IMG/VR virus record: IMGVR_UViG_3300026097_000022
Location: 1 to 63,103 of that record
Source: a virus
Taxonomy: Duplodnaviria; Caudoviricetes
DNA: 63,103 bases
Direction: 5' to 3' (one strand)
Under the pieces are notes generated by a model that saw nothing but the letters and a program-made list of their open reading frames with translations, ran no database searches and was not told the origin of the DNA. Position 1 is the stretch's first letter. The number at the start of each line of letters is the position of its first letter. Positions 6,285 to 63,103 of this stretch are shown here, one piece after another. The position numbers were made by a program, and so were the translations under genes.

Positions 6285-6324
6285 GATATCTCTTTCAGAT
6301 TAATGTTTTCATTTCTCTCTCAAT

Positions 6325-6349: not shown

Positions 6350-6449
6350 CTGTTTTGGGATATTACTGCAACAGGTCTTGCCGCATTCTACCGGTGCAAC
6401 CTGGCACCATTTACTTTCTGTATTTTCTGTAGTGTTTCGTTTGTTTCGT

Positions 6450-6866: not shown

Positions 6867-7321
6867 ATAACTCTATATTGATTCATACCATCGACACGAT
6901 CTACTCTGAGCATCTCGCCTCTATTTTTCCCTTTCTTGTAAGATACGTGAACCCAATCCGGTTCATCGTCTGTACCAAACTCCCAGATCATCTGATCAAA
7001 CACAAGGTTATCCTTGATGTACTCAAACAATTCCTTGTTGGTGAATCCACCATACACCTGTGCATCCAGGTCCAAAGCTTCACCCTTACAGTGTTGACTA
7101 CGGCTACTCCCTTTTATAGCCTTGTTAAGAGCCTCGCTTCTATAACCTGAGCTCACATATAGAGGCTTACCGAAGTGCTCTCTAATCGGCTGAAACACGT
7201 GTTCAGCAACAAGCAATAAGTTCGCTAGGTGTTCTGGTGTAGGCTTGTTGTCGATGCCTAATCGTTTAGCTGTGCCTGACTTGATGACCTCAGCTAGAGA
7301 TAAGTTTTCTGTCAATTTCAT
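6863..7321 (-). CDS. endolysin, peptidase M15 family
   Basis: SSGYRS...SQHCKGEALD...WVHVS zinc-peptidase motifs. Confidence 0.88.
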   Translation of the reverse strand: MKLTENLSLAEVIKSGTAKRLGIDNKPTPEHLANLLLVAEHVFQPIREHFGKPLYVSSGYRSEALNKAIKGSSRSQHCKGEALDLDAQVYGGFTNKELFEYIKDNLVFDQMIWEFGTDDEPDWVHVSYKKGKNRGEMLRVDRVDGMNQYRVI

Positions 7322-7539
7322 TTCTTTGCAAATTTTTCTAGCCCTGCGATTCCAAAGCTCCCCAAAGTTACGAAAACAAAACTGTTATAAGTGAACTCAT
7401 TGATAGGTAAGTGTGCACCAAATGCACCAGTGATTACATCAGCAAGCATCACCAATACCATTACAGCGAAGGAGAGAAAACCAATAATGGTCTTCTCGTT
7501 CCAGCTGTTGTCGTCTTTAAAAATCTCTAAAAATTTCAT
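7318..7539 (-). CDS. putative holin
   Basis: 73 aa, two TM helices, basic C-terminus, next to the endolysin. Confidence 0.65.
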   Translation of the reverse strand: MKFLEIFKDDNSWNEKTIIGFLSFAVMVLVMLADVITGAFGAHLPINEFTYNSFVFVTLGSFGIAGLEKFAKK

Positions 7540-7542
7540 AGT

Positions 7543-47463: not shown

Positions 47464-47503
47464 CTTTTCGCTGAATCGTTATCAAACGCAAAGATAATAA
47501 TTA

Positions 47504-49627
47504 TTAACGTACGATTGGTTTCGCCTTCCTAAAGAACTGTTTACCAGAGAAGTCTGACCTCTTCTTTTCTTTCGCTACACGCTGGGCAGCAAGCAATGCT
47601 AACCCTGAAGATATGGTAAGGTCATACTTGGTACGGTCGTCAATCTTAAAGTTGATCCAGTCTTCTAGTGTACGCTCAAAGTACATACGTCCGTAGTTTC
47701 CAGCTTCATCTAAACCTATGTGCTCGTGAATATATGCCTCGATAGATTGTGCGTGTGCTTGGATTACATCCTGAGAGTTAGATGGTATACCTTTTGTTTT
47801 TACAGCTACCCTAGCCGTAGACTTCAAGTGTTCCGGACGGTCCATTAAGTACCCATCGTACCCTCTGTTCTCAAAGTAACGAGCGATACCGTACTTGTTA
47901 TTCTCGATGAGTATTTCGTAGCCGTAGTACACAGCAGCCATAAGCACATCTTCATAGAAGATCCTTGCTAGTGGTGGACGGCTTGCATACTCTAGTACAA
48001 ACATATTGGAGGGGTACTCCATATTGAACTTGTTGTATAGGTGGTATGCACCCTTGGACCCACGACCATCAACTGTAGCGTCAAGATCATAGCTATCCAC
48101 TCCACCGGTACCTATGTGTTTATTACCTGGAGACTTCTTACCTTTATCTGTAACCACCTTGTTGCGTAGTTCTGTAGGCGGTAGCCAGGCTACTCTGAAT
48201 CGACCATCAGGATCTGGACGGAACAACACCTCTGTGTCTTGTTTACCGTCTTTCCATACAAAGTTTCCTTTTACTACAGGGTGAGGGTACAGCTCTTGAT
48301 TGTGCTCCACCTGTTCGTAGATCTTACCAATGTTGAACAGGCTAGCTTTAGCTGAATCACGGAATGCTTCCTCAGCAGTAAACGGGAACTGACGGATAAC
48401 CTCATTCAGTTCATTGCTGTTATTGGATAGTGACTTACGCTCGTTCTTCAAGTAAGTGCGTGCACCTATCTCAATAAGATCTCCATCGATACCCATCACC
48501 GGTTCTTCTGGATTGTCTACAACGGGATTACCATACACGTCAAAGAAACCTTCTAGTGCTTCGTATGCCGGCACAAATATTCTGTACAGCATTGACTTGG
48601 TCCTACCATTGGCGTTACGCTCAGATGGATCGGACATATCCCAAAGGTCACGGTAGTTCTTACCGCCCTTGTCCAATGGGTTGACTGTAGAACCTACAAT
48701 AGCCTTGCCTACAAACTTACGACCTACCATCAAACAGGTACGCTGAATACGCCAGATCTCTAGGATATCTTCTGGGCGCTCAAATTTACCAGCCTCATCG
48801 ATGAATAGAACCTTTAGCTTCTCACCATCATAGGCATTCGAAGTAGTGTTTCTCCAGCTGACAATTGTATTCAGTGCTTCACCACCACCGGCAGTCTTGT
48901 TCTTCTTGGTGATACGCTTTGACGGCTCACGAAACGCAAGCTCTGTACGTGGGTTTGTGGTACCATCTTGAATAGGCTTGAAGAAGAATGGGTAGTGACG
49001 ATACATACCTACCACCTTTTTCATAAAGATGTTGTCCTGTGCATCACGACCTGTCTTAGACATAATCCCTAGACCGGCATCATACGTAGAAGTAGCTACA
49101 TCATCCACAACAGAGGAGGCTACGTTTGTGTATCCAGAACGTCTACACTTCGTATACATCTGTCCAGCACTTCTAGGATCTACAAAACAAGCTTCAAGGT
49201 GGAGCATAATGTCCCTTTGAAACTTTAAGTAGTACCCATAAAAGCTGGCATCGATCTTACTCCACTGGAGTAGCATATAGTTCTTGCCAGTGATATATGT
49301 TGCAACACCGTTATTGTAGAACCATAGTCCGTTGTTCCTGCGATCAAACTCTCGCTTGATGTATGGCTCGTACTTTGCTTTGAACTCTTTCGGCATATCA
49401 TACCAGTCGTCCATAGACTTGATACGTGACAGCTCCGTAGGCATTGGAATACGTTGCCAGCGTTGCTCAGGCTTAGGTAGGTCACTATAGAGAATCTTAC
49501 TGTCATCAGGTTGCTCAGGTAGCTGTATAGCTAGACCAGCAATCTCTACAATATCACCAGAGGTATCGTTGGGACATATATTTATGACCTTCTCTTCGTA
49601 ACCTTTTATGTCTTTTAGCCCTGCCAT
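47504..49627 (-). CDS. terL: terminase large subunit
   Basis: KCRRSGYT (Walker A-like), LFIDEAGK (Walker B), QFP...EAF, GVDSYD nuclease motif. Confidence 0.9.
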   Translation of the reverse strand: MAGLKDIKGYEEKVINICPNDTSGDIVEIAGLAIQLPEQPDDSKILYSDLPKPEQRWQRIPMPTELSRIKSMDDWYDMPKEFKAKYEPYIKREFDRRNNGLWFYNNGVATYITGKNYMLLQWSKIDASFYGYYLKFQRDIMLHLEACFVDPRSAGQMYTKCRRSGYTNVASSVVDDVATSTYDAGLGIMSKTGRDAQDNIFMKKVVGMYRHYPFFFKPIQDGTTNPRTELAFREPSKRITKKNKTAGGGEALNTIVSWRNTTSNAYDGEKLKVLFIDEAGKFERPEDILEIWRIQRTCLMVGRKFVGKAIVGSTVNPLDKGGKNYRDLWDMSDPSERNANGRTKSMLYRIFVPAYEALEGFFDVYGNPVVDNPEEPVMGIDGDLIEIGARTYLKNERKSLSNNSNELNEVIRQFPFTAEEAFRDSAKASLFNIGKIYEQVEHNQELYPHPVVKGNFVWKDGKQDTEVLFRPDPDGRFRVAWLPPTELRNKVVTDKGKKSPGNKHIGTGGVDSYDLDATVDGRGSKGAYHLYNKFNMEYPSNMFVLEYASRPPLARIFYEDVLMAAVYYGYEILIENNKYGIARYFENRGYDGYLMDRPEHLKSTARVAVKTKGIPSNSQDVIQAHAQSIEAYIHEHIGLDEAGNYGRMYFERTLEDWINFKIDDRTKYDLTISSGLALLAAQRVAKEKKRSDFSGKQFFRKAKPIVR

Positions 49628-49669
49628 TTGTTTTTTATTTCGTAACTTTACATTAAATTAACATACGAT

Positions 49670-49801
49670 ATGAAGAAGTTACTATTATTTTGTGCGGTAT
49701 TATTGCTATCATCTTGCGCCTCAACAGGCAGCTATGAGTTCACTCAAACCTGCGTATATCCTAGCTGTGACAACCTAGCAATCCACCACCACACCTTCTA
49801 G
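49670..49801 (+). CDS. small lipoprotein, opposite strand to the late block
   Basis: Read by hand: MKKLLLFCAVLLLSSC-ASTGSYEFTQTCVYPSCDNLAIHHHTF; lipobox LSSC. Confidence 0.65.
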   Translation: MKKLLLFCAVLLLSSCASTGSYEFTQTCVYPSCDNLAIHHHTF

Positions 49802-50094
49802 CGTTTAGCAAACTGCTCGCTAAAACCACCGCCATAATCCTGATCGGCTTCAATACCTCCGGTCTCTTTCAATTCCTTGATCATATTCTCCAGCTTCTGG
49901 TACTCAGTGATCAACTCCTTAGCATCTAGTGCGGATTCTTTAATACTCTTGAGCTCAGCTCTACGTCCTGATCCAGATTGTTCTGTATCGATCGGTCTTC
50001 TGATCTCTTCGGTGATATTCCGGATAGCCTCAGCCATCGCTTCCAACAGCTCTTCACCGGCTTTTACGCTGCTGAATTGTCTCTTGCGCCCCAT
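49798..50094 (-). CDS. possible terminase small subunit
   Basis: 98-aa helical protein upstream of terL; synteny only. Confidence 0.4.
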   Translation of the reverse strand: MGRKRQFSSVKAGEELLEAMAEAIRNITEEIRRPIDTEQSGSGRRAELKSIKESALDAKELITEYQKLENMIKELKETGGIEADQDYGGGFSEQFAKR

Positions 50095-51312: not shown

Positions 51313-52301
51313 TAGTCAAGTTTTGTTAGGATGAATGTAGATGTAGCAAGAAGACCGGATACGTTATTAGATGAAATCTTGTAGTACAAATCCGTTGCTG
51401 CCGCTACGTGGCGTACAAGTGAAAATCCAATAGCTGTATTACCTGTACTAGAGTGACCACGTGCAATGGATTGAATCAATGTTTCAGAACCACCGTCTGG
51501 TTTTTCATATATAGCTACATCAACATCAGTGTTATTTACTGACACCTCTAACATAAAGTTGATATCAATCTTTACCAAGCCTTCTTGCTGCACATTTACA
51601 GCGCCAGTAGTCGTGGAGCTTGGGAAGAAATGGTTTGATGTATCGTTTACCTCGTGAGAAGAAGCATTACCGTTGTTGTTTATACCGGCTTGAGGAGGTG
51701 TTGCTAAAGTTGTAGTAACAGAGTACAAACCGTTAGGGCGTAAGACAAACATAGGATTGGCAAACACCTGTGAGCTACCACTAGCTGTAGAAGCAAAGCT
51801 AACAGTATTCCCAGAGTACGTGATAGCCATATTACTACCCGCCTCAAACAAGATGTTTCCGTTAGAGTTAGGCGTTGCAAAGTTTACAGCGTTTGAACTG
51901 TCTACAAAAGCAACAGTCCTTGGGGTTTCATCATCGATCCAAGAAGTGCCATTCCAATACAATAAAGCACCTGAAGCTGGCGAAGTAATTGTTGTGTCTG
52001 TAAGATCTGCTAGTGTAGAAACACCACCGCTGCCATCACCAAAAGCACCAGCTCCTAGCTCACGGCTAACCACATCTCCATTTGCATCTAACAGTAAAGC
52101 TGTAAGCTCCGTAGAAGAAACAGTAGGAGTGTTAGTAAAAGAAAGTGTACCATCAATCTCTACAGTGTCTGTAGATAATTTCAATCCAGTGTCGTTCCCT
52201 CCACCATCTTCAACTGTCTTCAATGTAGCTGTAACCCCACCTTCTACGTGGAGCAAATTACCGTACTTATCCTTGATCTTCTGACCTGCTAATGTAGCCA
52301 T
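51312..52301 (-). CDS. putative structural/decoration protein
   Basis: L.DL.D...T....GA.LY.NG..W repeat-type motif; beta-rich C-terminus. Confidence 0.55.
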   Translation of the reverse strand: MATLAGQKIKDKYGNLLHVEGGVTATLKTVEDGGGNDTGLKLSTDTVEIDGTLSFTNTPTVSSTELTALLLDANGDVVSRELGAGAFGDGSGGVSTLADLTDTTITSPASGALLYWNGTSWIDDETPRTVAFVDSSNAVNFATPNSNGNILFEAGSNMAITYSGNTVSFASTASGSSQVFANPMFVLRPNGLYSVTTTLATPPQAGINNNGNASSHEVNDTSNHFFPSSTTTGAVNVQQEGLVKIDINFMLEVSVNNTDVDVAIYEKPDGGSETLIQSIARGHSSTGNTAIGFSLVRHVAAATDLYYKISSNNVSGLLATSTFILTKLD

Positions 52302-52316
52302 ACTGTTTTATTTAGT

Positions 52317-52335
52317 TAACTTTGCAACAAAGGTA
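52317..52335. promoter_or_regulatory. adjacent opposite-strand -7 boxes (TAACTTTG +, TACCTTTG -)
   Basis: 52317-52324 (+) and 52328-52335 (-), serving genes 52356 (+) and 52301 (-). Confidence 0.55.
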
Positions 52336-52355
52336 CTAATTTAATTTACAGCTAT

Positions 52356-52814
52356 ATGCCCAAGGGTAGAGTCGCCAAAAAGAAGATGTTTAGGGACTTC
52401 TCCTACATCGATGATAAGTGGATCAAAGACAACTATTTAAAGCTCTGGCATCCCACGATGAGAGATATGTCTACCAACTACGATGTCAATGAGTCTCAAA
52501 TGAGATTTATGATCTTCGTGTATGATCTAGAGTTCTGGACCAGGGATTGGATTGCTGATCAATACGGTAATCAGAAATGGGGAATGAGTAAGCACCTCAT
52601 CTACCCACTACTAAAGAAAGGATATCTGTACAAGCACTTCAATAGATACGCACCTAACCACGAAAAGAATGATCACCTGTTCCGTGAGGAGCTAGGACAA
52701 AACTATCGTATACGCTACGCACTATCCCAGAAGGGTAGAAACTTTGTAGCACGCTTCTACAATAAGATGCAGGGTGAGGTTAAGATCAATGCGCCTTTTT
52801 CACGCGAAACTTAG
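52356..52814 (+). CDS. hypothetical protein, possible winged-helix regulator
   Basis: LIYPLLKKGYL...YALSQKGR resembles a MarR-type wing. Confidence 0.5.
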   Translation: MPKGRVAKKKMFRDFSYIDDKWIKDNYLKLWHPTMRDMSTNYDVNESQMRFMIFVYDLEFWTRDWIADQYGNQKWGMSKHLIYPLLKKGYLYKHFNRYAPNHEKNDHLFREELGQNYRIRYALSQKGRNFVARFYNKMQGEVKINAPFSRET

Positions 52815-52950
52815 CCTCTAGGCTAGCACCCTTATGTGCAACAAATTCTCCCTTGTGAGGCATTAGGTAGTAACGCCCCTTCTCAAGCATCCAATGATAC
52901 CCAGAAGGAGCCTTTACCATCTCGTGTGTTTTTGCTTTCTTAGCTTTCAC
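52786..52950 (-). CDS. small basic protein
   Basis: Read by hand, GTG start: ..VKAPSGYHWMLEKGRYYLM.. Confidence 0.5.
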   Translation of the reverse strand: MKAKKAKTHEMVKAPSGYHWMLEKGRYYLMPHKGEFVAHKGASLEAKFRVKKAH

Positions 52951-53089
52951 GTTTTATTTTTTTAACAGCTTCAAGCATTGCCTTAGTAGGCTTCTTGCCA
53001 GAACCTCTATTTGCACGTATGTTGTCCCATAACCCACGAGGTGAGTATGATCCGTCTTTACGCTTAATTAGTTTCTTCTTAGCACGCAT
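52940..53089 (-). CDS. small basic protein
   Basis: Read by hand: MRAKKK...RGLWDNIRANRGSGKKPT. Confidence 0.55.
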   Translation of the reverse strand: MRAKKKLIKRKDGSYSPRGLWDNIRANRGSGKKPTKAMLEAVKKIKRES

Positions 53090-53475
53090 TACTTTTTCTT
53101 TTTTACACGCATCATCTTAAAGTCAGCGCCAGAGATCTTACCGTCCTTGTTAGCGTCAAGCTTTACCTGACCACCTTTCAAGTACATACTCATCTTACCA
53201 CCGTTCTTCAAGTACTTCTCTGCAATCTTAGTAGCTTGCTCTGGAGTAGCTCCTTCTTTGATGGCTTGCTTGTACTCACGATCAGCTTCACTACGTCTCT
53301 TAAGGTATGCCTTCTCAGCTTCCATTTCTGCTAGACGCTCCTTAGCGACACCAGCCATCTTAGTCGTTTCTGCTTCACGCTCTGCCGGTGACAGCTTTTT
53401 CTTCTTAGTGGTCACACCACCCTTCTCGTACATACTGTACTTACCGCCTTTGCCGTAATTCTTCTTAGCCTTCAT
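53089..53475 (-). CDS. basic protein with EF-hand-like loop
   Basis: Y.KGG repeats; LDANKDGKISGADF. Confidence 0.6.
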   Translation of the reverse strand: MKAKKNYGKGGKYSMYEKGGVTTKKKKLSPAEREAETTKMAGVAKERLAEMEAEKAYLKRRSEADREYKQAIKEGATPEQATKIAEKYLKNGGKMSMYLKGGQVKLDANKDGKISGADFKMMRVKKKK

Positions 53476-53634
53476 CTATTTTTTCTTTTTACAGTCCTTA
53501 GATTCCTCACAGTAGCATACCTCTTCACTACCACAAGCAAACGGTTCAGGGATGTCATAGACCTTCCCTCTGCCCATACGTGCAAGTATAGACACGATCA
53601 CAATGATCCAAAATAATACTACTAGTTCTTCCAT
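53476..53634 (-). CDS. small membrane protein with Cys-rich tail
   Basis: Start set 5 nt after the TATCTTTG box (53640-53647). Confidence 0.5.
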   Translation of the reverse strand: MEELVVLFWIIVIVSILARMGRGKVYDIPEPFACGSEEVCYCEESKDCKKKK

Positions 53635-53697
53635 AGACGCAAAGATAGTAAACATATACATTCAAGATAAACAGCTGTAGACCAGCACATTGGGTGC

Positions 53698-54228
53698 TTA
53701 CTCTGTCGTCCAGTTATTTTCAATCATAAGATCTCTAAAACATACAGCCTCAGAAAGAGATTCAAATCTTCCGAAACTATGTACTTTATTACTTATGCTT
53801 TTCTGAACGTTGTATCTACCTCCTGTAATACTTATGTGTTTCGGTAATTTATATTTCCCCATTGATGATCTTCTTGTATTCTCTGATTGGGAAATCATCT
53901 GTAGGTTTGAAATGCAATCGTTTGAGGGGTCTGAGTCTATATGGTCTATTACCATACCTCTTTTAATAGGCTCGTCAGAAACCTCATTAAACGTGAAGTA
54001 CACCAGATGGCTAACCTTTTTATCAATGACAGATCCTTTATGACTCATAGATATAGATCTGTACTTATTAGACTTGGACCCACCCTTTAGTATTCTTTCT
54101 TTATGGGTGACCTTTTTGCCATTGCTGTATTTTACAGTTCTCTTTTTTCTTCTTACTCTACCTAGATTAGAGACTTCATAATTTTCATTGTACGGATAGC
54201 AGTACACATCTTTCCAAACTTCCTTCAT
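53698..54228 (-). CDS. NUMOD4-HNH homing endonuclease
   Basis: EVWKD...YEVSNLGRVR (NUMOD4); IDHID....ND..SNL......EN (HNH); AP2-like tail. Confidence 0.85.
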   Translation of the reverse strand: MKEVWKDVYCYPYNENYEVSNLGRVRRKKRTVKYSNGKKVTHKERILKGGSKSNKYRSISMSHKGSVIDKKVSHLVYFTFNEVSDEPIKRGMVIDHIDSDPSNDCISNLQMISQSENTRRSSMGKYKLPKHISITGGRYNVQKSISNKVHSFGRFESLSEAVCFRDLMIENNWTTE

Positions 54229-54259
54229 AGTGTAATTGTTTCTGCAAAGATACAACAAG

Positions 54260-55420
54260 TTTAGACACTAAATGATTCACTAATAATTGTTAGTCGAGAC
54301 TAAACCTGACGGCATCTTTCGTTAATCAGTACTTTGCATTACATAGTACCCCCGTAAACACTGGGATTCATTTTCTTATTTATATTGATTCTAAACTTAT
54401 TTTTCCGTAACTTTGCCTTATGAGGTGACAAGCTCTCAAGTTCCGAGCATCATATCCTCAGACAATAAGAGCAACAATTCACTATAGGGGTGGCGCTCAC
54501 CGCCGCACCCACCCCTAATCACTACAGCCAAACATACTCCGTATACGGCACAACTATATCTTGTGACTAGCTGTACACCATCCACCCCCTCCCTACCTAT
54601 TTCACCTCCTTACAGCTACATATTCTGTGGAGTCTTATGGCGGTCTTTCAGCCGCAAAAGACATTCTCCCCATACATCCCCCTCATCCCCAGAAATAAAC
54701 CCCTGAAACACCCCTTAAAACGCCTTAAAAAGCATCTATTCACCACCATTCCCCTCCCTATTTCCATCCATACCCACACAACATTATACAGCTGATCTGT
54801 TGCACCCCATTGTTTTTGTATTGAGTTATTTGTAGGAGTGGGATTCTATATATATATGAGCGCGCACGCGTGTAGCCCGAACCGATTCTCTCGACCCCAC
54901 CCCCCCAGATTTCGTTTTGGATTTCCCTGAGGATTTTGGCTTTTTTGACCGGTGTGCTGAGGCTGTTTTTGACCTGATCGAGACAGGTACTTTTTACCCG
55001 GTGATTTGATGCCGACCGGAGGATGTGAAGAGGTGATATTTGTAGGTTATGTATGCAGGTGAGGAACAATCCCCTCCCAACCCATTTTCCCCTCATCCAA
55101 CGCACTCACAAACACTGCCCAGTTGACTCCAGAGGACCCGAATGTCCAACCCTTGGTACACTGCTTTTGTGACCAGTTGATGCCCCAGTCGTTCGGTTAC
55201 TGGGTGAAAAGTGCCGTTCCAGGAACGTGGTTTTGTGCCCCTACGTGCGTGCGTGTACGTGTGCGGGTATCTTACTCTTGACGGGGATGTTAAATTTTTC
55301 TCCCTGATTTTCAGGCAGTTAGCTGTTGATTGTGAAAAAAGTTTGATTTGCGTTTGGTGGTTTCAGGATGTCGCCGTAGAATTGTGGTGTTGAAACGATT
55401 CAACGACTAAAACAAATGCC
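54260..55420. other. large non-coding strand-switch region (candidate origin or packaging/terminus region)
   Basis: No credible ORF; separates divergent late and early blocks; C-runs and alternating purine-pyrimidine tracts. Confidence 0.5.
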
Positions 55421-55422
55421 TT

Positions 55423-55626
55423 ATGAGAAACCCATTAAACATCCAAACGTTGACCAAAGTATTCGCTGATGTGCTGAATGTGAAATACACTGATTTTGGT
55501 TCGAACAAAAAAGAGATGAGAATAGCTAAAGACCTAGCTGTTAAATTTCACGATTTGCACTTGAGTGGTGGTGACCTGAGCACATTTGCTCCAGTAATCG
55601 ACCAAGCCAAAAAAAAGCTAAGCTAA
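55423..55626 (+). CDS. early hypothetical protein
   Basis: Starts at TGCCTT-ATG. Confidence 0.7.
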   Translation: MRNPLNIQTLTKVFADVLNVKYTDFGSNKKEMRIAKDLAVKFHDLHLSGGDLSTFAPVIDQAKKKLS

Positions 55627-55656
55627 CTAGAACACTAAACTTAAATTAATTGCCTT

Positions 55657-55830
55657 ATGAAAAATCAAAACTCAATCAACCCACAAGAAGCTAAAGCACT
55701 ACTTGACAACGTACGTGCTGACCTAGACAAGCTCATTGCGCTAGGTGAAAGCTACGCACATTTCCAATCTGCTCAGGCTACGCACAAGTACCTGAAGAAG
55801 GCTAAGAATGCCTTAAAAGGGCTCAGCTAG
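55657..55830 (+). CDS. early hypothetical protein (57 aa)
   Basis: Read by hand: MKNQNSINPQEAKALLDNVR...; TGCCTT-ATG start. Confidence 0.7.
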   Translation: MKNQNSINPQEAKALLDNVRADLDKLIALGESYAHFQSAQATHKYLKKAKNALKGLS

Positions 55831-55836
55831 TTAGCT

Positions 55837-55890
55837 GTTACGCTGATGATGGGTGAGCACACCCGAAACTGCCTTCGGGCAGTCCGTAAC
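55837..55890 (+). ncRNA. type I hammerhead ribozyme
   Basis: GTTACG-CTGATGA-T-GGGTG(AGCA)CACCC-GAAA-CTGCC(TTCG)GGCAG-TC^-CGTAAC: full core and three perfect stems. Confidence 0.9.
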
Positions 55891-55911
55891 TAAACTTAAA
55901 TTAATTGCCTT

Positions 55912-56286
55912 ATGAAAGAATTAATCCCTATGGAATTTATCAGTAGCCACGGAACACTATACGTCAATGAGAACGGCACTATAAACAGCATTGATTGTGA
56001 TGAAGTTGATTGGCTAGGCGATATCAGCAAAGTAGATATCGAAGAGTTGGATTACTACCTGAGCCTATATGACCTTGAACCGACTCAGGGTGGTGATGTA
56101 CTTGACTTCGGGTATTGGGACAAAGATGGTGTATACCATCAGCCGAGTAGACAATGGAGGGAAGATGTGTTTCATAGAATCTCAGTCGACTCCGACCCTG
56201 ATGAAGCCAAGGATTATTGGACTGAAGAGAAGATACAAGAAACCATTGAGAAGAGTTTCGAGTGGATAAAGAAGAATAGACTATAG
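55912..56286 (+). CDS. early acidic hypothetical protein
   Basis: 124 aa; TGCCTT-ATG start. Confidence 0.75.
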   Translation: MKELIPMEFISSHGTLYVNENGTINSIDCDEVDWLGDISKVDIEELDYYLSLYDLEPTQGGDVLDFGYWDKDGVYHQPSRQWREDVFHRISVDSDPDEAKDYWTEEKIQETIEKSFEWIKKNRL

Positions 56287-56294
56287 ATTGGTTC

Positions 56295-56341
56295 GCTCAT
56301 TGGATGCTTCAGGCATCGCCTAGGTCGTGCTAGGAGTGAGC
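56295..56341 (+). ncRNA. small three-way-junction RNA element
   Basis: GCTCATT/AGTGAGC encloses GATGCT/GGCATC and CCTAG/CTAGG hairpins. Confidence 0.45.
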
Positions 56342-56485
56342 TCTAAAACAATTGTGAAAATAATTGTGGAAATGTATTGCGGTCTCGGAATATCTTTTTA
56401 GATTAGCAAAGCAAATGAGGGAGAGCCCGTAAGCCCTACCTCAGCTAGTTAGGTCTAGCAACGTACTTTACTTATTGGAAAACAA

Positions 56486-56622
56486 ATCAGTCTGATGAGG
56501 GCAGTCCATTCAACTGCCTGAGCACATTGTGCTCGACTCCTGAAACGGAGCGAAACCACGGAACGTAGGAAGTACGTATGATATTTAAGAGGGCAGTGTT
56601 ACAGCTGTCCTTGGTTACTGAT
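56486..56622 (+). ncRNA. expanded hammerhead-like ribozyme (branched stem II; substrate site repeated elsewhere)
   Basis: ATCAGT-CTGATGA-G[3 hairpins]C-GAAA-CC ... GG-TT^ACTGAT. Confidence 0.7.
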
Positions 56623-56646
56623 ATTACTAATTAAAATAAATGCCTT

Positions 56647-56988
56647 ATGATTACATTCACTGAATTACTAGAATCGTTTGCCTTCAATGAGGAAGGTAGA
56701 CTACCAAATGCAATTGATCCAACCGCACTTTTATCAGGTATTGATATTGTAGGTTTTGAAATCACTACTAACCGAGATACGTATGTTATCGCACTGGATG
56801 ATGACATCGAATACGTAGAAGAAACCGATGATTGGTTTAGCCTTTGCGAAGGCATCGATGCAAACGTGTTCATCACTGAAGCAGGTCTTGTACTGCTATC
56901 GTTTTACCCCGTTATAGATGGTAAGATAGATACCACTGATAGCCGTATGGAAAGTATTGCGTGTTTCACTAAACAATTGAAAAAATGA
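56647..56988 (+). CDS. early acidic hypothetical protein
   Basis: 113 aa; TGCCTT-ATG start. Confidence 0.75.
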   Translation: MITFTELLESFAFNEEGRLPNAIDPTALLSGIDIVGFEITTNRDTYVIALDDDIEYVEETDDWFSLCEGIDANVFITEAGLVLLSFYPVIDGKIDTTDSRMESIACFTKQLKK

Positions 56989-57254
56989 CAAGCAGAGATA
57001 AAATGATGGAAGTACTCGGTGAGTATTTCCCTATCACCGGAACGACCGAAGACTTCGATGGTAGCGAAGGTGGTATTTGGATTTGTGGCGAATGTGGATA
57101 CACCAACCTGAGAGGTGTGCCGTACTTCGATTACTACGCAACAACCGGTTCGTATGAATTCGGTGTATTGTCTAACCTAGTTAAACTAGCTGAGCGACAC
57201 GGATGGTACTTTGAATGGTACGATGCCGGGACCATTATGGTGACTCCTATGTAG
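56985..57254 (+). CDS. early hypothetical protein
   Basis: ATGA-coupled; GWYFEWYDAGT motif. Confidence 0.7.
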   Translation: MTSRDKMMEVLGEYFPITGTTEDFDGSEGGIWICGECGYTNLRGVPYFDYYATTGSYEFGVLSNLVKLAERHGWYFEWYDAGTIMVTPM

Positions 57255-57291
57255 GGGTTACCGGTTACTGATAACTTTAATTAAAAGCCTT

Positions 57292-57654
57292 ATGACAAAG
57301 CAAGACTTCGTACAATTACTTGTAAGCCACGATTGGTACTTCGAACGTACCGAAGACCCAAAGATGTACAAAAGAGGCGCAGAACAGCGCAGAAGAATCC
57401 TAGAAGCCAAGAAGAGCCTAGGTACTGATGGTGAATACTTATTTCAAAAGTACGCCAAGAAGATTCAACCGGATGCTCCTATAGCTGTAACCGCTACACG
57501 TTCTGCTCGTGTAATGCCTGAGCTTATCTGCCGGTCTACCGGGCGCATTGGTACGCTTGTAGACAAATCGCCAAACGGATTCTCGGAGGTGATGTTCAAC
57601 GGAGAGATGCGTAGTGAGTTTATGAGACAAAGCGATTACTTTTTACTCGACTAA
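57292..57654 (+). CDS. early hypothetical protein
   Basis: HDWYFE..ED...Y.RG motif; GCCTT-ATG start. Confidence 0.75.
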   Translation: MTKQDFVQLLVSHDWYFERTEDPKMYKRGAEQRRRILEAKKSLGTDGEYLFQKYAKKIQPDAPIAVTATRSARVMPELICRSTGRIGTLVDKSPNGFSEVMFNGEMRSEFMRQSDYFLLD

Positions 57655-57656
57655 TT

Positions 57657-57857
57657 ATGGAAAAGGATACATTGAGAAACGGATACCTGAGGATAGCTGA
57701 TAAGCTACAAGGTGAAGACCTACACGGAGCAATGGCTGTAGCCAGGAATCTAGGTCTAATGGGAATTATGAATGAGATAGGAGAGATTATGTACAGCCCT
57801 AATGAGGTGTACAATACCTATCGACAAAGGTTAATCGAATACCTTATCGAAGAATAA
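57657..57857 (+). CDS. early hypothetical protein
   Basis: 66-aa ORF. Confidence 0.6.
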   Translation: MEKDTLRNGYLRIADKLQGEDLHGAMAVARNLGLMGIMNEIGEIMYSPNEVYNTYRQRLIEYLIEE

Positions 57858-57904
57858 TAGAAGCCTCTACGGAGGTGGTTACTGATAACTTAATTTTATG
57901 CTTT

Positions 57905-58228
57905 ATGAATGTATCAACCATTTACAAATTACAACGTGAGAACGGACTTGCAGAGATGCAAGAGATGATCAACACCGGTCTTGCTTTTAAGATGGAAGGC
58001 AGTGTAACTAGAAGAGCTATGGAGCTGTTGCGCTCAGGAGCTTGTATGTTGCCTCTAACAGCTGTTGTCGATGCTTATGGTAATCGTGTACCTAGCCGTA
58101 AAGAACTTGTCTCAGGTACGCTAGGAACGTTTGAGAACGCTGTAAACTTTTGGTCGGATGACGACAACCTTATGATGCTCGAAATGGATAATGAGCCTGA
58201 TGAGGTAGCTTTATTTCACGAACTTTAA
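57905..58228 (+). CDS. early hypothetical protein
   Basis: Q.MINTG.AFKMEGS..R.AM.LL.SG.CML....DAYGN.VPSR; start at TGCTTT-ATG. Confidence 0.7.
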   Translation: MNVSTIYKLQRENGLAEMQEMINTGLAFKMEGSVTRRAMELLRSGACMLPLTAVVDAYGNRVPSRKELVSGTLGTFENAVNFWSDDDNLMMLEMDNEPDEVALFHEL

Positions 58229-58240
58229 ATCAATCATATT

Positions 58241-58516
58241 ATGTCGGAAAGAAAACATAGAAATAGAAAAGGAGACATCTGTTACACCTTCGGTTGGGAA
58301 GGCGGTGGTGGTAACCACGTATACGCACACAACAAAAGAGCCGCTTATAGAAGAGCTGTAAAACTGGGTGCCGGAACACATACACGTAACGGGGACAAAC
58401 TCAAAGTACCTGCTCAACATAAGCCATTAGTACCGGTTGAAGATACATTTCGGTCGGTCAACCTCACTGAGCTATTTGAATTCGATAAGAATTTATATCT
58501 AGCTTACTCCCTTTAA
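58241..58516 (+). CDS. early hypothetical protein
   Basis: 91-aa ORF. Confidence 0.65.
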   Translation: MSERKHRNRKGDICYTFGWEGGGGNHVYAHNKRAAYRRAVKLGAGTHTRNGDKLKVPAQHKPLVPVEDTFRSVNLTELFEFDKNLYLAYSL

Positions 58517-58661
58517 GTCAAGGCAAGGCAACTCCCGGATATCTTCGGGAATGAAGGACATTCTGCCGAACTCAATTTAATTAAGGTTAAAGATCGCCTT
58601 GAGCCTCCGGGTAAAGCATCGATCTAAGAATGTTCAAGATTGACAGCAAGGAAAGACTTGC
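58517..58661 (+). ncRNA. structured intergenic RNA, possibly manA-like
   Basis: Nested stems plus pseudoknot potential; terminal GCAAG-GAAAGA-CTTGC hairpin. Confidence 0.5.
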
Positions 58662-58680
58662 GGTTACTGATAACAACATT

Positions 58681-58803
58681 ATGAATGATTGGAAGATACC
58701 ATTTTTAAACATCGCTAAGATTACCTTTGGGTTAGCCTTGGGTATAGCTGTCGGAGGTGTATTTACCTTTATTGTAAAACAATTACTAAAACTAGTCTTA
58801 TGA
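58681..58803 (+). CDS. small membrane protein (40 aa)
   Basis: Read by hand: MNDWKIPFLNIAKITFGLALGIAVGGVFTFIVKQLLKLVL. Confidence 0.6.
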   Translation: MNDWKIPFLNIAKITFGLALGIAVGGVFTFIVKQLLKLVL

Positions 58804-58967
58804 ATTTGAAAGAGATGTACCAGGAGGTTTACCTTCTAACAAGCCGTGTAAAGGAACGTGCTGAGTTAGCAGACCGAACACTAGATGCTCACGATATGGA
58901 GCGTATAGAAGCCCTACTAGGGCAGATTCAGGTGTTTACAAAACAACACCACAGCAACTGCGAGTAA
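58800..58967 (+). CDS. small hypothetical protein (55 aa)
   Basis: ATGA-coupled; GTCTT-ATG start. Confidence 0.6.
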   Translation: MNLKEMYQEVYLLTSRVKERAELADRTLDAHDMERIEALLGQIQVFTKQHHSNCE

Positions 58968-59001
58968 TTTGATTACCACTTGTGGGTTAAATAAATTCTT
59001 G

Positions 59002-59009
59002 TATATTTG
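59002..59009 (+). promoter_or_regulatory. -7 promoter box TATATTTG
   Basis: TAnnTTTG followed by a non-coding structured region. Confidence 0.6.
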
Positions 59010-59013
59010 CATC

Positions 59014-59116
59014 AACAAACAACCCTCGTGCCAATTGTGGTTGTTTTGCAAGCATACATTTAAGACTCTATCGGAAGTAGTTGAGGGCACGCAACGAAAC
59101 TGATAGGGTCTTTTTT
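59014..59116 (+). ncRNA. candidate ~100-nt sRNA/leader with kissing loops and an E-loop
   Basis: Two hairpins with complementary loops CGTGCC/GGCACG; AGTA/GAA internal motif; ends in a T tract. Confidence 0.55.
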
Positions 59117-59621
59117 GTTGCTTGGTATTGAGGCGCAACACAAAACAAAGCCCTTACGTTTGGAAGAGATGGTTACCGAGTAAACAGCATCGCCAATGAT
59201 CCGGATGAATAATACACACCGGATGGAGACCTACGCTATTGGAAACAGCTGTAGTTTCAATGCTCTAAACAAAAGTGTTAGCGAGTGATGGATTCCTATA
59301 CCTTTCCTGCTCGTGGGTGCCGGAGAATGCGATGAGTCAACCTTAAGCTAGTCTCTTTCCTTTATAGGGTTCTATACCCTATAGGGGATTTGAAGGTCTG
59401 CTCAGATATCACCAAAAGCTAGTTAGCTGTAAGAAACATTCACCCTCTACAAGATACATTGAGGGAGGAGGTGGGGGGTTCTAAACCCCCTCCCCCCCGC
59501 CACACAACATTCAAGGCAAGCAACATAATCAGGCAAGAAAAATTACTAACATTTCTTGTATAAGTTACAGCTATTTAGTAAATTGCAATCAACATTAGAA
59601 GTCTAATTAAATTCAATACAT

Positions 59622-60209
59622 ATGACTTTAGGAGAGAAGCTGTCTTTGATACAGCAAGAATTCAAGGCTAAGAAAAGCCGCTTCAATAGCTTCGGGAAGT
59701 ACAACTTCCGTAGTGCTGAAGACATCTTGGAGGGACTAAAACCTTTCAACACAAAGTACAAGGTACACTTCCTTGTAGAAGAAACATTAACTGATCTTGG
59801 TGGTCACCCTATCATCATCTCTACAGCTAGCATTGTAGACAATGAGAAAGGCGATCGTGTAAGTGCTACAGCTATTGTAGGTGTAGACCTAGCACAAAAA
59901 GGTATGCAGATGCCTCAGGCTTTTGGTTCAGCTTCTAGCTACGGCAAGAAGTACTCACTGGGTAACCTTTTGTTGATTGATGATACAGCTGATGCTGATG
60001 CAACCAATGGACACGGAAAAGCACCTGCTACACCGGCTAAGGCACAAGCCCCAGCTACAGCGCAGAAAGATGACAGCTTCCAGCAGTCTATCGAATACTT
60101 GAAGAGCACACCGGACGACAAGAAAGGTATGGTACTGGGTATGATCCTAGAAAAGTACGGCAACAAGTTCTCGCCTAAGCAGGTTGAGGCACTCAAGAAG
60201 TTTGTATAA
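59622..60209 (+). CDS. ERF-family single-strand annealing protein
   Basis: K...N.FGKYNFRSAEDI...K; Q..GSASSY.KKY.L..LL.IDD..D.D. Confidence 0.88.
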   Translation: MTLGEKLSLIQQEFKAKKSRFNSFGKYNFRSAEDILEGLKPFNTKYKVHFLVEETLTDLGGHPIIISTASIVDNEKGDRVSATAIVGVDLAQKGMQMPQAFGSASSYGKKYSLGNLLLIDDTADADATNGHGKAPATPAKAQAPATAQKDDSFQQSIEYLKSTPDDKKGMVLGMILEKYGNKFSPKQVEALKKFV

Positions 60210-60226
60210 CAGCTAAAGAAACAATT

Positions 60227-60493
60227 ATGAATTATCGTGAGAAAAACCTTATTAGATCAATAGAGCATTTAGGAGTGTCAGCGCAGAACGATGCGGTGGT
60301 AAACCTAAGAGATCAAAACAAAGCAACTGTCTTTGTAATGAACCATCTTAACGAGCTTATAAACATCACCATCCAAAACATTGATAATAGAATGTATGTA
60401 TGGGTAGGCGGTAAGCAATACGAGATCCGAGAAGGTCAGGTAGAAGCTGTTGATGACATTCAGATGCCGGAATCAGAATACGTAAACCTCTAA
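60227..60493 (+). CDS. hypothetical protein
   Basis: 88-aa ORF in the recombination operon. Confidence 0.65.
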   Translation: MNYREKNLIRSIEHLGVSAQNDAVVNLRDQNKATVFVMNHLNELINITIQNIDNRMYVWVGGKQYEIREGQVEAVDDIQMPESEYVNL

Positions 60494-61302
60494 TGGAGTT
60501 CGCTAGACTACTAGTTGAGAGGACGGGTAAACCATACCTGTCCTACTCAGCGCTTAAGTACGCCGCAGATGGTGGAAAACAGCAGGATATGAAACTATTC
60601 GAGCTGTACATCACCGGTAAACTTAAGAAGGAAAGCCAAGCACTATTCTTTGGATCATTGTACGATATGATGTTGCTAGAGCCTGAGAAGGTGAATGAGC
60701 AGTTCTATGTGCTTGATGATTCCGAAATCATTGAACAGCTAAAGGACAAATACAAAAATCCTAGAGCTTCCAAGCAGTACAAGGAATGGAAAGCAGCTCA
60801 AGAAGGTGATAAGCGTACAGCTGTACCTGAAGAAGACTGGTGGATGGCTAAGAATATGATCAGCCGCCTAGACAGCTCTGAAGTAGTAGATCCTGAGACT
60901 GGTTTGATCACTCCAGTGCGTAACTTCCTTAAGGGGAAAGCTCAGGTAGAATTCAACACTTGGATTGAAGAGATTCCGGTAAGAGGTTTCTTTGATGTTG
61001 AAGGTGATGGGTTCGTAACGGATAGTAAGTCCACACGTAACGTGTACGGATTTAGATACGATGTGAAGAGCTTTGATTACGACATCCAAGCATACATCTA
61101 CACTCAGGTAGCCGGAACAGACACGTTCTATTGGGTAGCTCAGGGTAAGGCTAAGCCATATCTCTGCGCTGTATACAAGGCTTCTCCGGAGATCATCGCT
61201 TCAGGTGAGCGTAAGTTTTGGTCAGCTGTAAACAACATTACCAGATGGCTTAACGATCCAACAAAAGACACCGAAGCATTCGCTATTTATGGTGAAATTT
61301 AA
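60493..61302 (+). CDS. RecE/DUF3799-like PD-(D/E)XK exonuclease
   Basis: LSYSALK, FGS....MLLEP, RG.FD.....V.D.KST, Y..QA..Y. Confidence 0.8.
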   Translation: MEFARLLVERTGKPYLSYSALKYAADGGKQQDMKLFELYITGKLKKESQALFFGSLYDMMLLEPEKVNEQFYVLDDSEIIEQLKDKYKNPRASKQYKEWKAAQEGDKRTAVPEEDWWMAKNMISRLDSSEVVDPETGLITPVRNFLKGKAQVEFNTWIEEIPVRGFFDVEGDGFVTDSKSTRNVYGFRYDVKSFDYDIQAYIYTQVAGTDTFYWVAQGKAKPYLCAVYKASPEIIASGERKFWSAVNNITRWLNDPTKDTEAFAIYGEI

Positions 61303-61335
61303 TCTTATCAACTTGTTTATTAACTAGGAACACTT

Positions 61336-61343
61336 TATATTTG
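61336..61343 (+). promoter_or_regulatory. -7 promoter box TATATTTG
   Basis: TAnnTTTG upstream of the SSB-like gene. Confidence 0.55.
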
Positions 61344-61369
61344 TTCCTGCAACTTTAAATTTAATAGTT

Positions 61370-61654
61370 ATGCAAAACGACAAAATCTTTGCGCAAGGAT
61401 TCTCTTTCAAGAAGAATCCAAACTCTCCTGAATTCGTAGTAGGGAAACAATCTATCAAGGTAGATGAAGCTGTAGCATTCCTACAGGCAAATCAAAAGAA
61501 CGGCTGGGTCAACCTAGACGTGAAACAAGCCAAGAACGGCAACTACTATATGGAGTTGGACACTTGGGAGCCTAAGGGCGGTAACGGTCAATCAGCACCG
61601 GCTTCAAACAATCCGTTTGTTGCAACAACTCCAGGAAGTGACCTACCGTTCTGA
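61370..61654 (+). CDS. putative single-stranded DNA-binding protein
   Basis: Small beta protein with flexible tail ending DLPF; next to the ERF and exonuclease genes. Confidence 0.7.
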   Translation: MQNDKIFAQGFSFKKNPNSPEFVVGKQSIKVDEAVAFLQANQKNGWVNLDVKQAKNGNYYMELDTWEPKGGNGQSAPASNNPFVATTPGSDLPF

Positions 61655-61668
61655 TAGAATAAGTAATA

Positions 61669-61701
61669 AGGGAGGTGGAGCTAGACTTCGCCTCCCTATT
61701 T
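61669..61701 (+). terminator. hairpin/terminator after the SSB-like gene
   Basis: AGGGAGGTGGAG...CTTCGCCTCCCT-ATTT. Confidence 0.55.
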
Positions 61702-61706
61702 ACTAT

Positions 61707-61925
61707 ATGGAGGTAGAGGTATCTATCTTCAAAGCCAAGAACTGGCACAAGAGACACACTTGGATCGTTAGTGTGATCACTGATCAAAATCAAATCTTAA
61801 AAGAAGATGCCAAAACAAGGTCAAGACTCAACGAAGAGTACTACGGATCAAAGTTCAAAGGACAACGAGGCATCCGGATCGAGCGAATCCACAGCTGTAA
61901 GCAAATCGGCACCACAGCTTGGTAG
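61707..61925 (+). CDS. hypothetical protein
   Basis: Start set at the ATG after the hairpin. Confidence 0.55.
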   Translation: MEVEVSIFKAKNWHKRHTWIVSVITDQNQILKEDAKTRSRLNEEYYGSKFKGQRGIRIERIHSCKQIGTTAW

Positions 61926-61952
61926 CGACTTCAAATTTTTATACTGGGAACA

Positions 61953-62243
61953 ATGAGAACAAAGAAAGAGGAAGAAGATTTTCAGAAATTCAATAAAGCT
62001 GTAAAGCTAACACTACTACTACAAGCATCGCTTGAGTTGATGGATGAGATGAAGGGGTTGAAGATGTATAGACAAGACATCAAGAACCAAATGAATAGAC
62101 TGGAGAAAAAGATTGAGATACACCTGCGTGAAGCTATTGCTCAGATGTCTTCTGATGAAGAGTTTATGATGATGCAGATACAAAGAGGTATCGATACATT
62201 ATTAGAAAAAACATTAGAGGAGATTCACAATGAGGGTATTTAA
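61953..62243 (+). CDS. hypothetical protein
   Basis: 96-aa helical ORF. Confidence 0.65.
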   Translation: MRTKKEEEDFQKFNKAVKLTLLLQASLELMDEMKGLKMYRQDIKNQMNRLEKKIEIHLREAIAQMSSDEEFMMMQIQRGIDTLLEKTLEEIHNEGI

Positions 62244-62373
62244 AGTAAAGATCAAGGACCAGGTCTACGGAACATACAAGACTATAGAACAGGCTAGAGA
62301 CCTTAGGGATATGCTTAGACAGTGGAGTTATGGACAGCTGTCTATAGTAGTCACTGAAGAGGAGGATGAGTAA
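62230..62373 (+). CDS. small hypothetical protein (47 aa)
   Basis: Read by hand: MRVFKVKIKDQVYGTYKTIEQA... Confidence 0.5.
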   Translation: MRVFKVKIKDQVYGTYKTIEQARDLRDMLRQWSYGQLSIVVTEEEDE

Positions 62374-62773
62374 ACTGATAAGGGGAGGGGTTTTTACTAA
62401 CTTAAACTAACGACTGTGGTTATTCGTTCCCTCCCTTTATGAGCCAATTAATTAAGATAAACGGCTCAAATCTTCACAGCTATGAACCTTAAATCTTCAC
62501 AATGATGTCAAGTAAATTGCACAAAATAGTTGACACCAACAAGAGGTGTAAGCACATTAAAAGAGAAGGTGAGAGTTGTACGCTCAATAACAACTGCACC
62601 TATCCCAGATGTAAAACCTTACGAGTGTAACGAATGCCCTTGAGTACCCAACGAGGGTAATGTATCAATAAACAGATTACAATCTGCTTATTTGTAACAT
62701 TAATGATACTTTAAGCATATAAAAATAGGCGCACACATATAAAAGTAGGCGCAAACCTTAATACCAAATAAAA

Positions 62774-62899
62774 ATGAGAGAAATATTACTTGAGATGTAC
62801 GAGAAACTTTGGAACGCTGACAAGGATAAGTGGGCTTGGAATGTGATACTGAAGGACACGCTTGAGAAATTAGAGACCAAAGATGATACAGAACAATAG
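62774..62899 (+). CDS. small hypothetical protein, paralog of 437-601
   Basis: MREILLEMYEKLWNADKDKWAWNVILKDTLEKLETKDDTEQ. Confidence 0.6.
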   Translation: MREILLEMYEKLWNADKDKWAWNVILKDTLEKLETKDDTEQ

Positions 62900-62974
62900 G
62901 GTTTTGTGTCTTTAATAGAACATTATGTCAAGTAAACTGCACAAGATGCTTGACACCTTTAACACCAAAGAGAG

Positions 62975-63103
62975 ATGACATCTTTTAGAGAACTCAAAAA
63001 GCGACATAAACTAAAATACTATCTTGGAAAAGATAGTGTTGGAAACAAACTATATGCCGCTGATGAAGTAAAACTCTCTATGCCGATTGAAACAAGGACT
63101 CCT
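62975..63103 (+). CDS. hypothetical protein, truncated by the window end
   Basis: Starts within the CCTTTAACACCAAAGAGAGATG repeat; open to the end. Confidence 0.5.
   Translation, partial: MTSFRELKKRHKLKYYLGKDSVGNKLYAADEVKLSMPIETRTP

Follow-up and report, generated by a model that had tools for sequence, protein, structure and literature searches.

Can a single hammerhead ribozyme core serve several cleavage sites along one phage transcript? Natural hammerheads are, to our knowledge, self-cleavers with one core per site. The question is raised by a block of small early genes in IMGVR_UViG_3300026097_000022, a contig of a tailed phage (Caudoviricetes) that was analysed over its whole length of 63,103 bp and is called the window here (W in Table 1). 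The block is headed by an element at 56486-56622 which, by its sequence, is a complete and enlarged type-I hammerhead. The initial annotation had proposed that its catalytic strand processes the early mRNA at four dispersed substrate sites, the cis site and three sites that have no core of their own. Our analysis points the same way: sites 2-4 of the early transcript are probably cut by this single core.

The four sites share the 11-mer GGTTACTGATA, with exact copies at 56613, 57263, 57877 and 58662, all on the + strand, and no further exact copy on either strand (~0.03 expected by chance for a given 11-mer in 2 x 63 kb). With up to two mismatches allowed, the window holds 32 matches against 21.9 expected. 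The copies had been described as sense-strand and all intergenic; the first part stands, and the second needs qualifying for site 4, which falls within a mechanically called open reading frame (ORF) at 58630-58803. This ORF more likely starts with the in-frame ATG at 58681, which leaves site 4 5′ of it. Each copy lies directly behind its own hairpin, as had been noted, and from the predicted GUU^ cuts it is 30, 25, 24 and 15 nt to the ATG of an ORF that is 30 or more amino acids (aa) long (Table 1). GUU is present at all four cuts, consistent with an A15.1:U16.1 pair and with the N-U-H rule for hammerhead cleavage. No core stands beside sites 2-4: the CTGANGA words on the + strand between the first and last site are at 56492, 57687 and 58197, and the arm precedes only the one at 56492. 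The hairpin of site 2 overlaps the stop codon of the ORF at 56985-57254.

The enzyme half that the initial annotation read at 56486-56557 was borne out base by base, from the arm ATCAGT (56486-56491) through CTGATGA (56492-56498), G (56499) and C (56551) to GAAA (56552-56555) and CC (56556-56557). The core features C3-U4-G5-A6-N7-G8-A9 and G12-A13-A14 are found at 56492-56498 and 56552-56554. In relatives the parts follow in the order 6-nt arm, CUGANGA, two inserted hairpins, stem II with loop UGAGAU, GAAA-CC, internal hairpin, GC-rich hairpin, GG-U-H^ and arm complement. The stem II loop is conserved as UGAGAU in most of them (UGAAAC in the window, UGAnn in minimal copies). An extended stem III pairing of the window, CCAcGGA/UCCuUGG, was dropped because it is not conserved in relatives, and a pseudoknot between the 5′ flank and loop IIa, which looked possible in lineage A and not in the lineage-B locus L007 (lineages are defined below), is not claimed.

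Relatives, labelled L with a number, were fetched from IMG/VR by means of an exonuclease-like protein of 269 aa, whose gene (60493-61299) lies 2-4 kb downstream, giving 13 loci and then 80 with alignment; in an independent pattern scan with the motif the same contigs emerged as holders of multiple copies. Scanning metagenomes for a 19-nt stretch of the enzyme gave 74 matches, including many additional lineage-A copies. Thirteen of the 74 were chance matches on unrelated contigs without a core, and 12 were minimal hammerheads of another phage group, some cut by contig ends. One false large enzyme (L013, 1437) was excluded from enzyme and site counts. Together the IMG/VR and metagenome contigs contain 36 distinct related enzymes (arm ATCAGT, 23; ATCGGT, 8; ACAGAT, 2; GGTTAA, 3), in which N7 is T in 30, A in five and C in one, and the other core letters are kept, in a search that required CTGANGA and GAAACC.

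RNAalifold on six lineage-A sequences recovered stems I, IIa-c, III and IIIa-b, with compensatory changes in 15 of 41 pairs. In an alignment of eight sequences, which was fitted to the model, 98.1% of cells pair, compared with 33-42% when partners are slid, and 24 of 41 pairs have changes on both sides, a number reached by 0 of 500 shuffles. Such changes affect 4/6 pairs of stem I, where pairing is kept in all eight enzymes, 6/7 of IIa, 3/6 of IIb, 2/5 of stem II proper and 5/5 of hairpin IIIa; the stem III pairs A:U, C:G and C:G are invariant (8/8). A covariance model built from six lineage-A enzymes detects the lineage-B enzyme of L007 (39.5 bits, E 5e-9), which was absent from the model-building set and whose match is independent of the CTGANGA/GAAACC pattern search. 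The RNAalifold prediction, made independently of the fitted alignment, agrees with it on the three helices around the core, and these comparisons argue that the enlarged hammerhead is a real structured RNA.

Covariation between the arm and the repeated motif in related phages, to which the initial annotation had pointed as a check, is seen in three lineages. Arm ATCAGT or ATCGGT goes with site ACTGAT in lineage A (8 loci, 67 sites), ACAGAT with ATCTGT in lineage B (2 loci, 19 sites) and GGTTAA with TTAACC in lineage C (3 loci, 32 sites), and across the 13 loci just two hexamers of a foreign lineage stand behind GGTN, one on each strand. The part of the site that changes between lineages is exactly the six arm-pairing bases; the constant part is GG-U, which lies opposite the constant A-CC that follows GAA in the enzymes. 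ATCGGT, found in 8 of 31 distinct lineage-A enzymes, is the only arm variant of that lineage and forms a G.U pair with the unchanged site, as expected if the arm must fit many sites simultaneously.

This parallel change bears on the idea that a protein endoribonuclease or RNA-binding protein, of phage or host, reads the hairpin and the GGUH-hexamer and that the ribozyme is unrelated to sites 2-4. Hairpin-guided protein processing of repeated sites is familiar from Cas6 at CRISPR repeats. Repeated hairpin-guided sites are common for proteins, as in the five RNase III sites of the T7 early precursor (PMC3867540, in the part of the source used here). A protein of this kind would be required to change specificity over six contiguous bases in three lineages, in parallel with the ribozyme arm, and would have no conserved hairpin sequence to read (98 distinct among 111 unique sites). 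A nuclease family was not found among the ten small early ORFs, which were searched against PHROGs only. We regard a protein reader as highly improbable.

Thirteen arrays were examined in detail; they hold 4-15 sites each and 118 in all, with the enzyme's own first site included in the counts (Table 1). Behind each enlarged hammerhead, the array repeats the form hairpin-GG-T-H-hexamer. Twelve of the 13 arrays contain one arm-preceded CTGANGA core. In L012 there are two; the additional one belongs to a minimal hammerhead that has the same arm and serves a single repeated site. The first site is the cis site in every array, none lies upstream of the enzyme and all 118 are on the enzyme's strand. 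After 114/118 sites, an ORF of 30 aa or more opens with its ATG within 80 nt (median 24 nt). Other repeated 10-mers, in loci without arrays, were coding repeats and were set aside.

Within arrays the cleavage nucleotide is the only position that varies. Over 266 distinct site contexts, position 17 is T in 207, C in 52, A in seven and G in none, as in the NUH rule of hammerheads. Orthologous sites can differ there (GGTT at L001 4943, GGTC at L003 4891). The hairpin abuts the GG without a gap in 89 of 111 unique sites and with a 1-nt gap in 15. Orthologues of site 2 (L003 8058, L004 7850, L049 13470) have the same 10-mer behind different hairpin letters, and site 4 also has orthologues (L049 13925, L004 8306). 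A core-less site looks like a hammerhead stripped of everything 5′ of stem III.

The gene cassettes between sites are shuffled in order and combination among the closely related contigs L001, L002 and L003 (arrays at ~4200-8600); the ORF starting ATGAAAACTTTATTAGC, for example, takes ninth place in L001 and second place in L002. A further role of the repeated sites may be as joints for recombination. In the window, a decayed copy, GGTTACCGAG, lies at 59171-59180 (+) inside a conserved non-coding stretch, and at the same place L004 (8994) and L049 (14636) have GGTT^ACTGAT intact, lacking both a hairpin and a following ORF.

Complete hammerheads of ordinary size are also present. One, at 55837-55890 of the window, adds to the initial annotation, which had not mentioned it; its cut after 55884 would fall 27 nt before the ATG at 55912. 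Its stem III is capped by UUCG, and an additional U separates A9 from stem II; viroid hammerheads are known to have such an extra base, between A9 and G10.1. Its counterparts have their cores at 4923 in L004 and at 3957 in L005, the latter with one G.U in the arm. Cleavage after 55884 would define where the RNA with the large enzyme begins. Five loci contain both the enlarged and the minimal kind (the window, L002, L004, L005 and L012). In more distant relatives (L134/L135, L141, L152, L153, L155, L156, L157, L162, L163, L192 and L198), core-less arrays are absent and the hammerheads before genes are all complete, minimal and of type I; each of the 13 arrays examined has the enlarged enzyme. 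Several of the minimal hammerheads of distant relatives share one arm, and in these complete copies stem III is the hairpin preceding G-UH. The system likely originated, we infer, from arrays of minimal hammerheads sharing one arm, in which most catalytic strands were lost and one retained copy was elaborated.

Such ancestry also suits a reading of the core-less sites as uncut relics of complete hammerheads, kept as translation leaders or recombination linkers, and the minimal hammerheads with one shared arm do suggest such a descent. Cassette shuffling at the sites fits a linker, and an AU-rich leader like that behind the hexamer also occurs behind genes without a site (55395-55422 and 55625-55656). 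Relics would not be expected, however, to keep GG-U-H and the hexamer invariant over the 266 contexts while the hairpin letters vary freely, nor to change hexamers along with the arm in each of three lineages; the truly decayed copy at 59171-59180 shows how lost constraint looks. We consider the relic reading very unlikely.

We read the core-less sites as substrates because of the constancy of GG-U, the H17 rule, the abutting hairpin and the complete hammerheads of distant relatives. The multi-target proposal of the initial annotation is supported by the arm-site covariation, by GG-U facing A-CC, by the exclusion of G at H17 and by the stem III-like position of the hairpin. In the mechanism we propose, the catalytic strand would recognise every hairpin-GG-U-H^ACUGAU on the same-sense early RNA through 6 bp of stem I and 3 bp of stem III (A:U, C:G, C:G), and the substrate's own hairpin, abutting the GG, would complete a nicked stem III through coaxial stacking. 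Cuts after H17 would divide the polycistronic RNA into messages of one or two genes that have a 5′-OH start ~24 nt before the ATG and a 3′ end of hairpin plus GGUU with a 2′,3′-cyclic phosphate; the predicted RNA ends start ACUGAUAAC... and finish ...GGUU. We infer cleavage at the core-less sites and this end chemistry, and with them an effect on mRNA stability or translation; the strand could act over long range within one transcript or intermolecularly with turnover.

Cofolding of the window enzyme (56486-56583) with sites 1 and 2 gives the exact hammerhead pairing with the substrate hairpin retained. The gains for sites 1-4 are -7.1, -6.0, -6.7 and -4.7 kcal/mol, compared with -2.5 and -2.8 kcal/mol for hexamer-swapped controls.

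A number of observations weigh against this reading. The cofold minimum for sites 3 and 4 is not a clean hammerhead pairing, and with only 9 intermolecular bp the computed binding is weak, which is a better fit to long-range intramolecular action or high RNA concentration than to tight trans binding. After a cis cut the enzyme would hold its own ...GGUU tail in stem III, which must be displaced for the next substrate. The sites are related by descent, so that their counts are not independent, and the missing G17 rests on few transversions (7 A vs 0 G). The complete cis element of the window reaches -44.7 kcal/mol in the hammerhead fold, whereas a non-hammerhead fold, the minimum free energy structure at -46.7 kcal/mol, is 2 kcal/mol more stable. 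This competing, strand-swapped fold arises because hairpins IIa and IIIb have the 9-mer GAGGGCAGT in common (56497-56505 and 56588-56596, +), which was not seen in relatives; the shared 9-mer and the alternative fold may be chance or a switch. Natural fast hammerheads usually need a tertiary contact between stems I and II at cellular Mg2+; a conserved partner for such a contact was not found by eye, no formal search being made. The covariance model missed the enzymes of L008, L012, L143 and L144. Rfam matches at E up to 10 include no hammerhead around the enlarged element, only chance snoRNA-like matches, and none of any kind around the minimal one (55780-55960). At gathering score Rfam finds no family in the window, and on eight relative loci it finds tRNAs only; minimal hammerheads of L152 match below threshold (Hammerhead_3, 28.7 bits, E 0.0014; Hammerhead_1, 20.9 bits, E 0.061). 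The failure of the Rfam models probably reflects the large insertions and a stem I that is short and open.

Two further points on that side favour another account, in which the hammerhead cuts the first site only, its arm tracks this first copy, and hairpin plus motif is a signal at the DNA or protein level, such as a terminator with a promoter for a phage or virion RNA polymerase. First, arm-motif covariation would also be expected from cleavage at the first copy alone, with the motif serving another purpose; since cis cutting alone forces the arm to match the motif, support for cleavage at the core-less sites rests on the additional signatures. Second, the sites resemble the PeSL cassettes of T4-like phages in having a variable hairpin, a conserved stretch of 10-17 nt, a short leader and an ATG before small early ORFs (PMC4122927, as far as the portion consulted describes them). 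The shuffled cassettes of L001, L002 and L003 fit such a signal as well. The phage is crAss-related, and the early promoters of the crAss-like virion polymerase are given as unknown in the portion consulted of a study of the crAss-like phage phi14:2 (bioRxiv 10.1101/2020.03.07.982082).

A signal of this kind leaves unexplained why the sole tolerant position is H17, with G alone excluded, why the constant part is exactly the GG-U that faces A-CC, why the hairpin abuts the GG, why relatives have complete hammerheads at the same position before the ATG, and why the enlarged enzyme accompanies 13/13 arrays and loci with only minimal hammerheads have no core-less arrays. A scan of 52000-63103, limited on the promoter side to sigma-70-type promoters, made 19 promoter-like and 11 T-run terminator-like calls, none of them on the four sites, and the promoter-like calls were below the shuffle mean (19 vs 24.7). 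The -33 region of a Bacteroidetes-type promoter would land in the variable hairpin. Four giant ORFs, one of 3108 aa, were compared with PHROGs and Pfam and no RNA polymerase family was found; a regular-expression scan of them for a DFDxD-type motif was negative. A virion polymerase was thus not found in these searches, though one may be encoded, and the sites may be promoters for a phage polymerase of another kind. An N4-like hairpin promoter, which the 3108-aa ORF and the hairpins of 5-7 bp had brought to mind, was dropped, given a crAss-related phage, hairpins whose letters are free to vary and a conserved part that fits the ribozyme arm. We judge a separate signal unlikely and retain the reading of the core-less sites as hammerhead substrates.

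How far that reading extends is more doubtful. True intermolecular cleavage with turnover by the single core may occur, an extension that we entertain only tentatively. With similar reserve we put forward an RNA-only multiple-turnover endonuclease, a natural trans hammerhead with a 6-nt guide and up to 15 sites per genome that would have arisen from an array of self-cleavers once every catalytic strand except one was lost, the hairpin of each substrate now supplying the half of stem III that is missing; we lean slightly against it.

Engineered trans-cleaving hammerheads carry two recognition arms around the core and cut after NUH in a separate RNA. Unlike these (examples in PMC3064770 and PMC1199579, used in part, as are the other sources compared here), the present arrangement is natural and has asymmetric arms of 6 + 3 bp, a helix III that would be finished by the substrate hairpin, and a stem II with two extra hairpins. 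The split hammerhead of mammalian Clec2 3′ untranslated regions (Martick et al. 2008, cited in PMC6765202; PMC2920678) likewise has enzyme and substrate strands far apart on one transcript. It is described as one enzyme for one substrate with long stems, in contrast to many substrates here and a stem III of three intermolecular pairs plus a stacked hairpin. Perreault et al. 2011 (PMC3088659) report that genes of prophages and phages are flanked by several complete hammerheads, in the case of early genes a few nt before the start codon, and propose that they process long phage transcripts into gene-length mRNAs. The core, the position between phage genes and the proposed role are alike; Perreault-type elements here are the minimal hammerhead at 55837-55890 and the minimal copies of distant relatives (e.g. 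L152, L163, L198). There each cut site is described with its own core, whereas here one enlarged strand stands before 3-14 core-less sites.

In function the nearest analogue is T7, whose early polycistronic precursor is processed by RNase III at five hairpin signals (PMC3867540): an early transcript is cut between genes at hairpin-marked sites and 3′ hairpins are left. The T7 precursor is cut by a host protein whose substrate is double-stranded RNA; here the nuclease would be a phage-encoded, base-pairing RNA. PeSLs are stem-loop terminator-promoter cassettes (PMC4122927; PMC2839356) and share with the arrays a stem-loop and conserved motif before small variable early ORFs as well as cassettes shuffled between relatives. 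Unlike the promoter-bearing PeSLs, the conserved part here is a hammerhead substrate strand that can pair with the arm of a ribozyme close by, and it coincides with no -35/-10 call. A literature search, mostly outside subscription journals, found no natural multi-site or trans hammerhead in phages.

If cleavage at the core-less sites is true, a self-cleaving ribozyme evolved into a shared processing enzyme, represented by at least 36 distinct variants in three arm/site lineages, and phage hammerheads gain a concrete role in producing early mRNAs that are monocistronic and have a defined 5′ leader and a 3′ hairpin. The arrangement also suggests a way for a substrate hairpin to replace most of helix III. 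If turnover in trans is true as well, this would be the first natural small nucleolytic ribozyme acting as a shared enzyme and a blueprint for short-arm trans ribozymes.

Table 1. Parts of the enlarged hammerhead, predicted cleavage sites and minimal hammerhead of the window, with site numbers per array
Feature	Position	Strand	Remarks
Minimal type-I hammerhead, arms GUUACG/CGUAAC	55837..55890	+	complete; conserved in L004, L005
Stem I enzyme arm ATCAGT	56486..56491	+	complementary to ACTGAT at all four sites
Hammerhead core C3-A9 (CUGAUGA)	56492..56498	+	from sequence; six letters other than N7 kept in relatives
Hairpins IIa (56499-56519) and IIb (56520-56534), inserted at stem II base	56499..56534	+	RNAalifold
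Stem II proper: G...C closing pair, CUCC/GGAG, loop UGAAAC	56535..56551	+	RNAalifold and alignment
G12-A13-A14, A15.1, stem III enzyme side (GAAA-CC-A)	56552..56558	+	pairs invariant 8/8
Hairpin IIIa, ACGUA ggaag UACGU, inside stem III loop	56563..56577	+	covariation
Site 1 (cis): hairpin IIIb 56589-56612, GG 56613-56614, U16.1 56615, U17 56616	56589..56622	+	
Site 1, stem I strand ACUGAU	56617-56622	+	predicted cut after 56616
Site 2, core-less: hairpin 57239-57262 and GGUU^ACUGAU	57239..57272	+	predicted cut after 57266, 25 nt before ATG 57292
Site 3, core-less: hairpin 57863-57876 and GGUU^ACUGAU	57863..57886	+	predicted cut after 57880, 24 nt before ATG 57905
Site 4, core-less: hairpin 58646-58661 and GGUU^ACUGAU	58646..58671	+	predicted cut after 58665, 15 nt before ATG 58681
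Lineage A, sites per locus			W 4, L001 14, L002 12, L003 13, L004 6, L005 7, L049 6, L090 5
Lineage B, sites per locus			L007 9, L008 10
Lineage C, sites per locus			L012 6, L143 15, L144 11

The phage of the window is of podovirus-like type. Its large terminase is 39-49% identical to terminases of Flavobacterium, Maribacter and Cellulophaga phages, and the host is presumably among marine Flavobacteriia, going by these relatives. The ORF at 18962-23530 is a homologue of the crAss muzzle protein, which indicates that the phage is crAss-related. Structural genes lie on the - strand, and the block of small ORFs without family matches runs from ~55400 to 58970 on the + strand. No tRNA was found in a scan of the window, and a nucleotide search of 55800-59200 against GenBank phages gave no match. 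The window sequence is contained in 22 sequencing runs, all DNA or guessed DNA, with no RNA run among them. For the 269-aa exonuclease-like protein, GenBank phages offered remote relatives only, and a cultured relative with this system was not found.

The small-gene block is flanked by long non-coding stretches (54260-55420 and 58970-59620), partly C-rich and of odd composition. Long, highly transcribed intergenic regions are described for phi14:2, and, in the part of that study drawn on here, the 5′ ends of its early transcripts have no common upstream motif (bioRxiv 10.1101/2020.03.07.982082). By analogy, these may be processed ends and not starts.

The genome deposited nearest by terminase, MW202828.1, has no hammerhead; in its region 45600-50000 (L199/L200) a repeated palindrome, GTGTCGTTAACGACAC, stands 20-35 nt before several early genes. 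A different phage group (L203, L204, L223, L276 and other metagenome loci) has a minimal hammerhead with the stem II loop UGAGAU and an arm AAACCT or AGCCTC-like, ~40 nt before the ATG.

Tandem copies of GAGCTGAC(GA) lie 5′ of the lineage-B ribozymes (L007 1040-1100, L008 about 3290-3400); the CTGACGA words inside them are not hammerhead cores. Just 5′ of the enzyme in the window, a variable hairpin (56444-56459) is directly followed by a conserved single-copy box (56461-56471, +) with the consensus ACGT(T/A)C(T/A)TT(G/T)A, which may be an early promoter or belong to the 5′ portion of the ribozyme RNA. The box recurs, again right behind a variable hairpin, at L004 6001, L005 4568, L007 1194, L008 3421, L012 4474, L049 12099, L143 3535 and L131 3479, at a distance from the arm of 10-20 nt in lineages A and B and ~200 nt in lineage C. 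In L131, a relative of 63% identity, the place of the ribozyme array behind the box is taken, over 3480-4290, by ~800 nt of non-coding DNA that ends in a tRNA-like T-arm.

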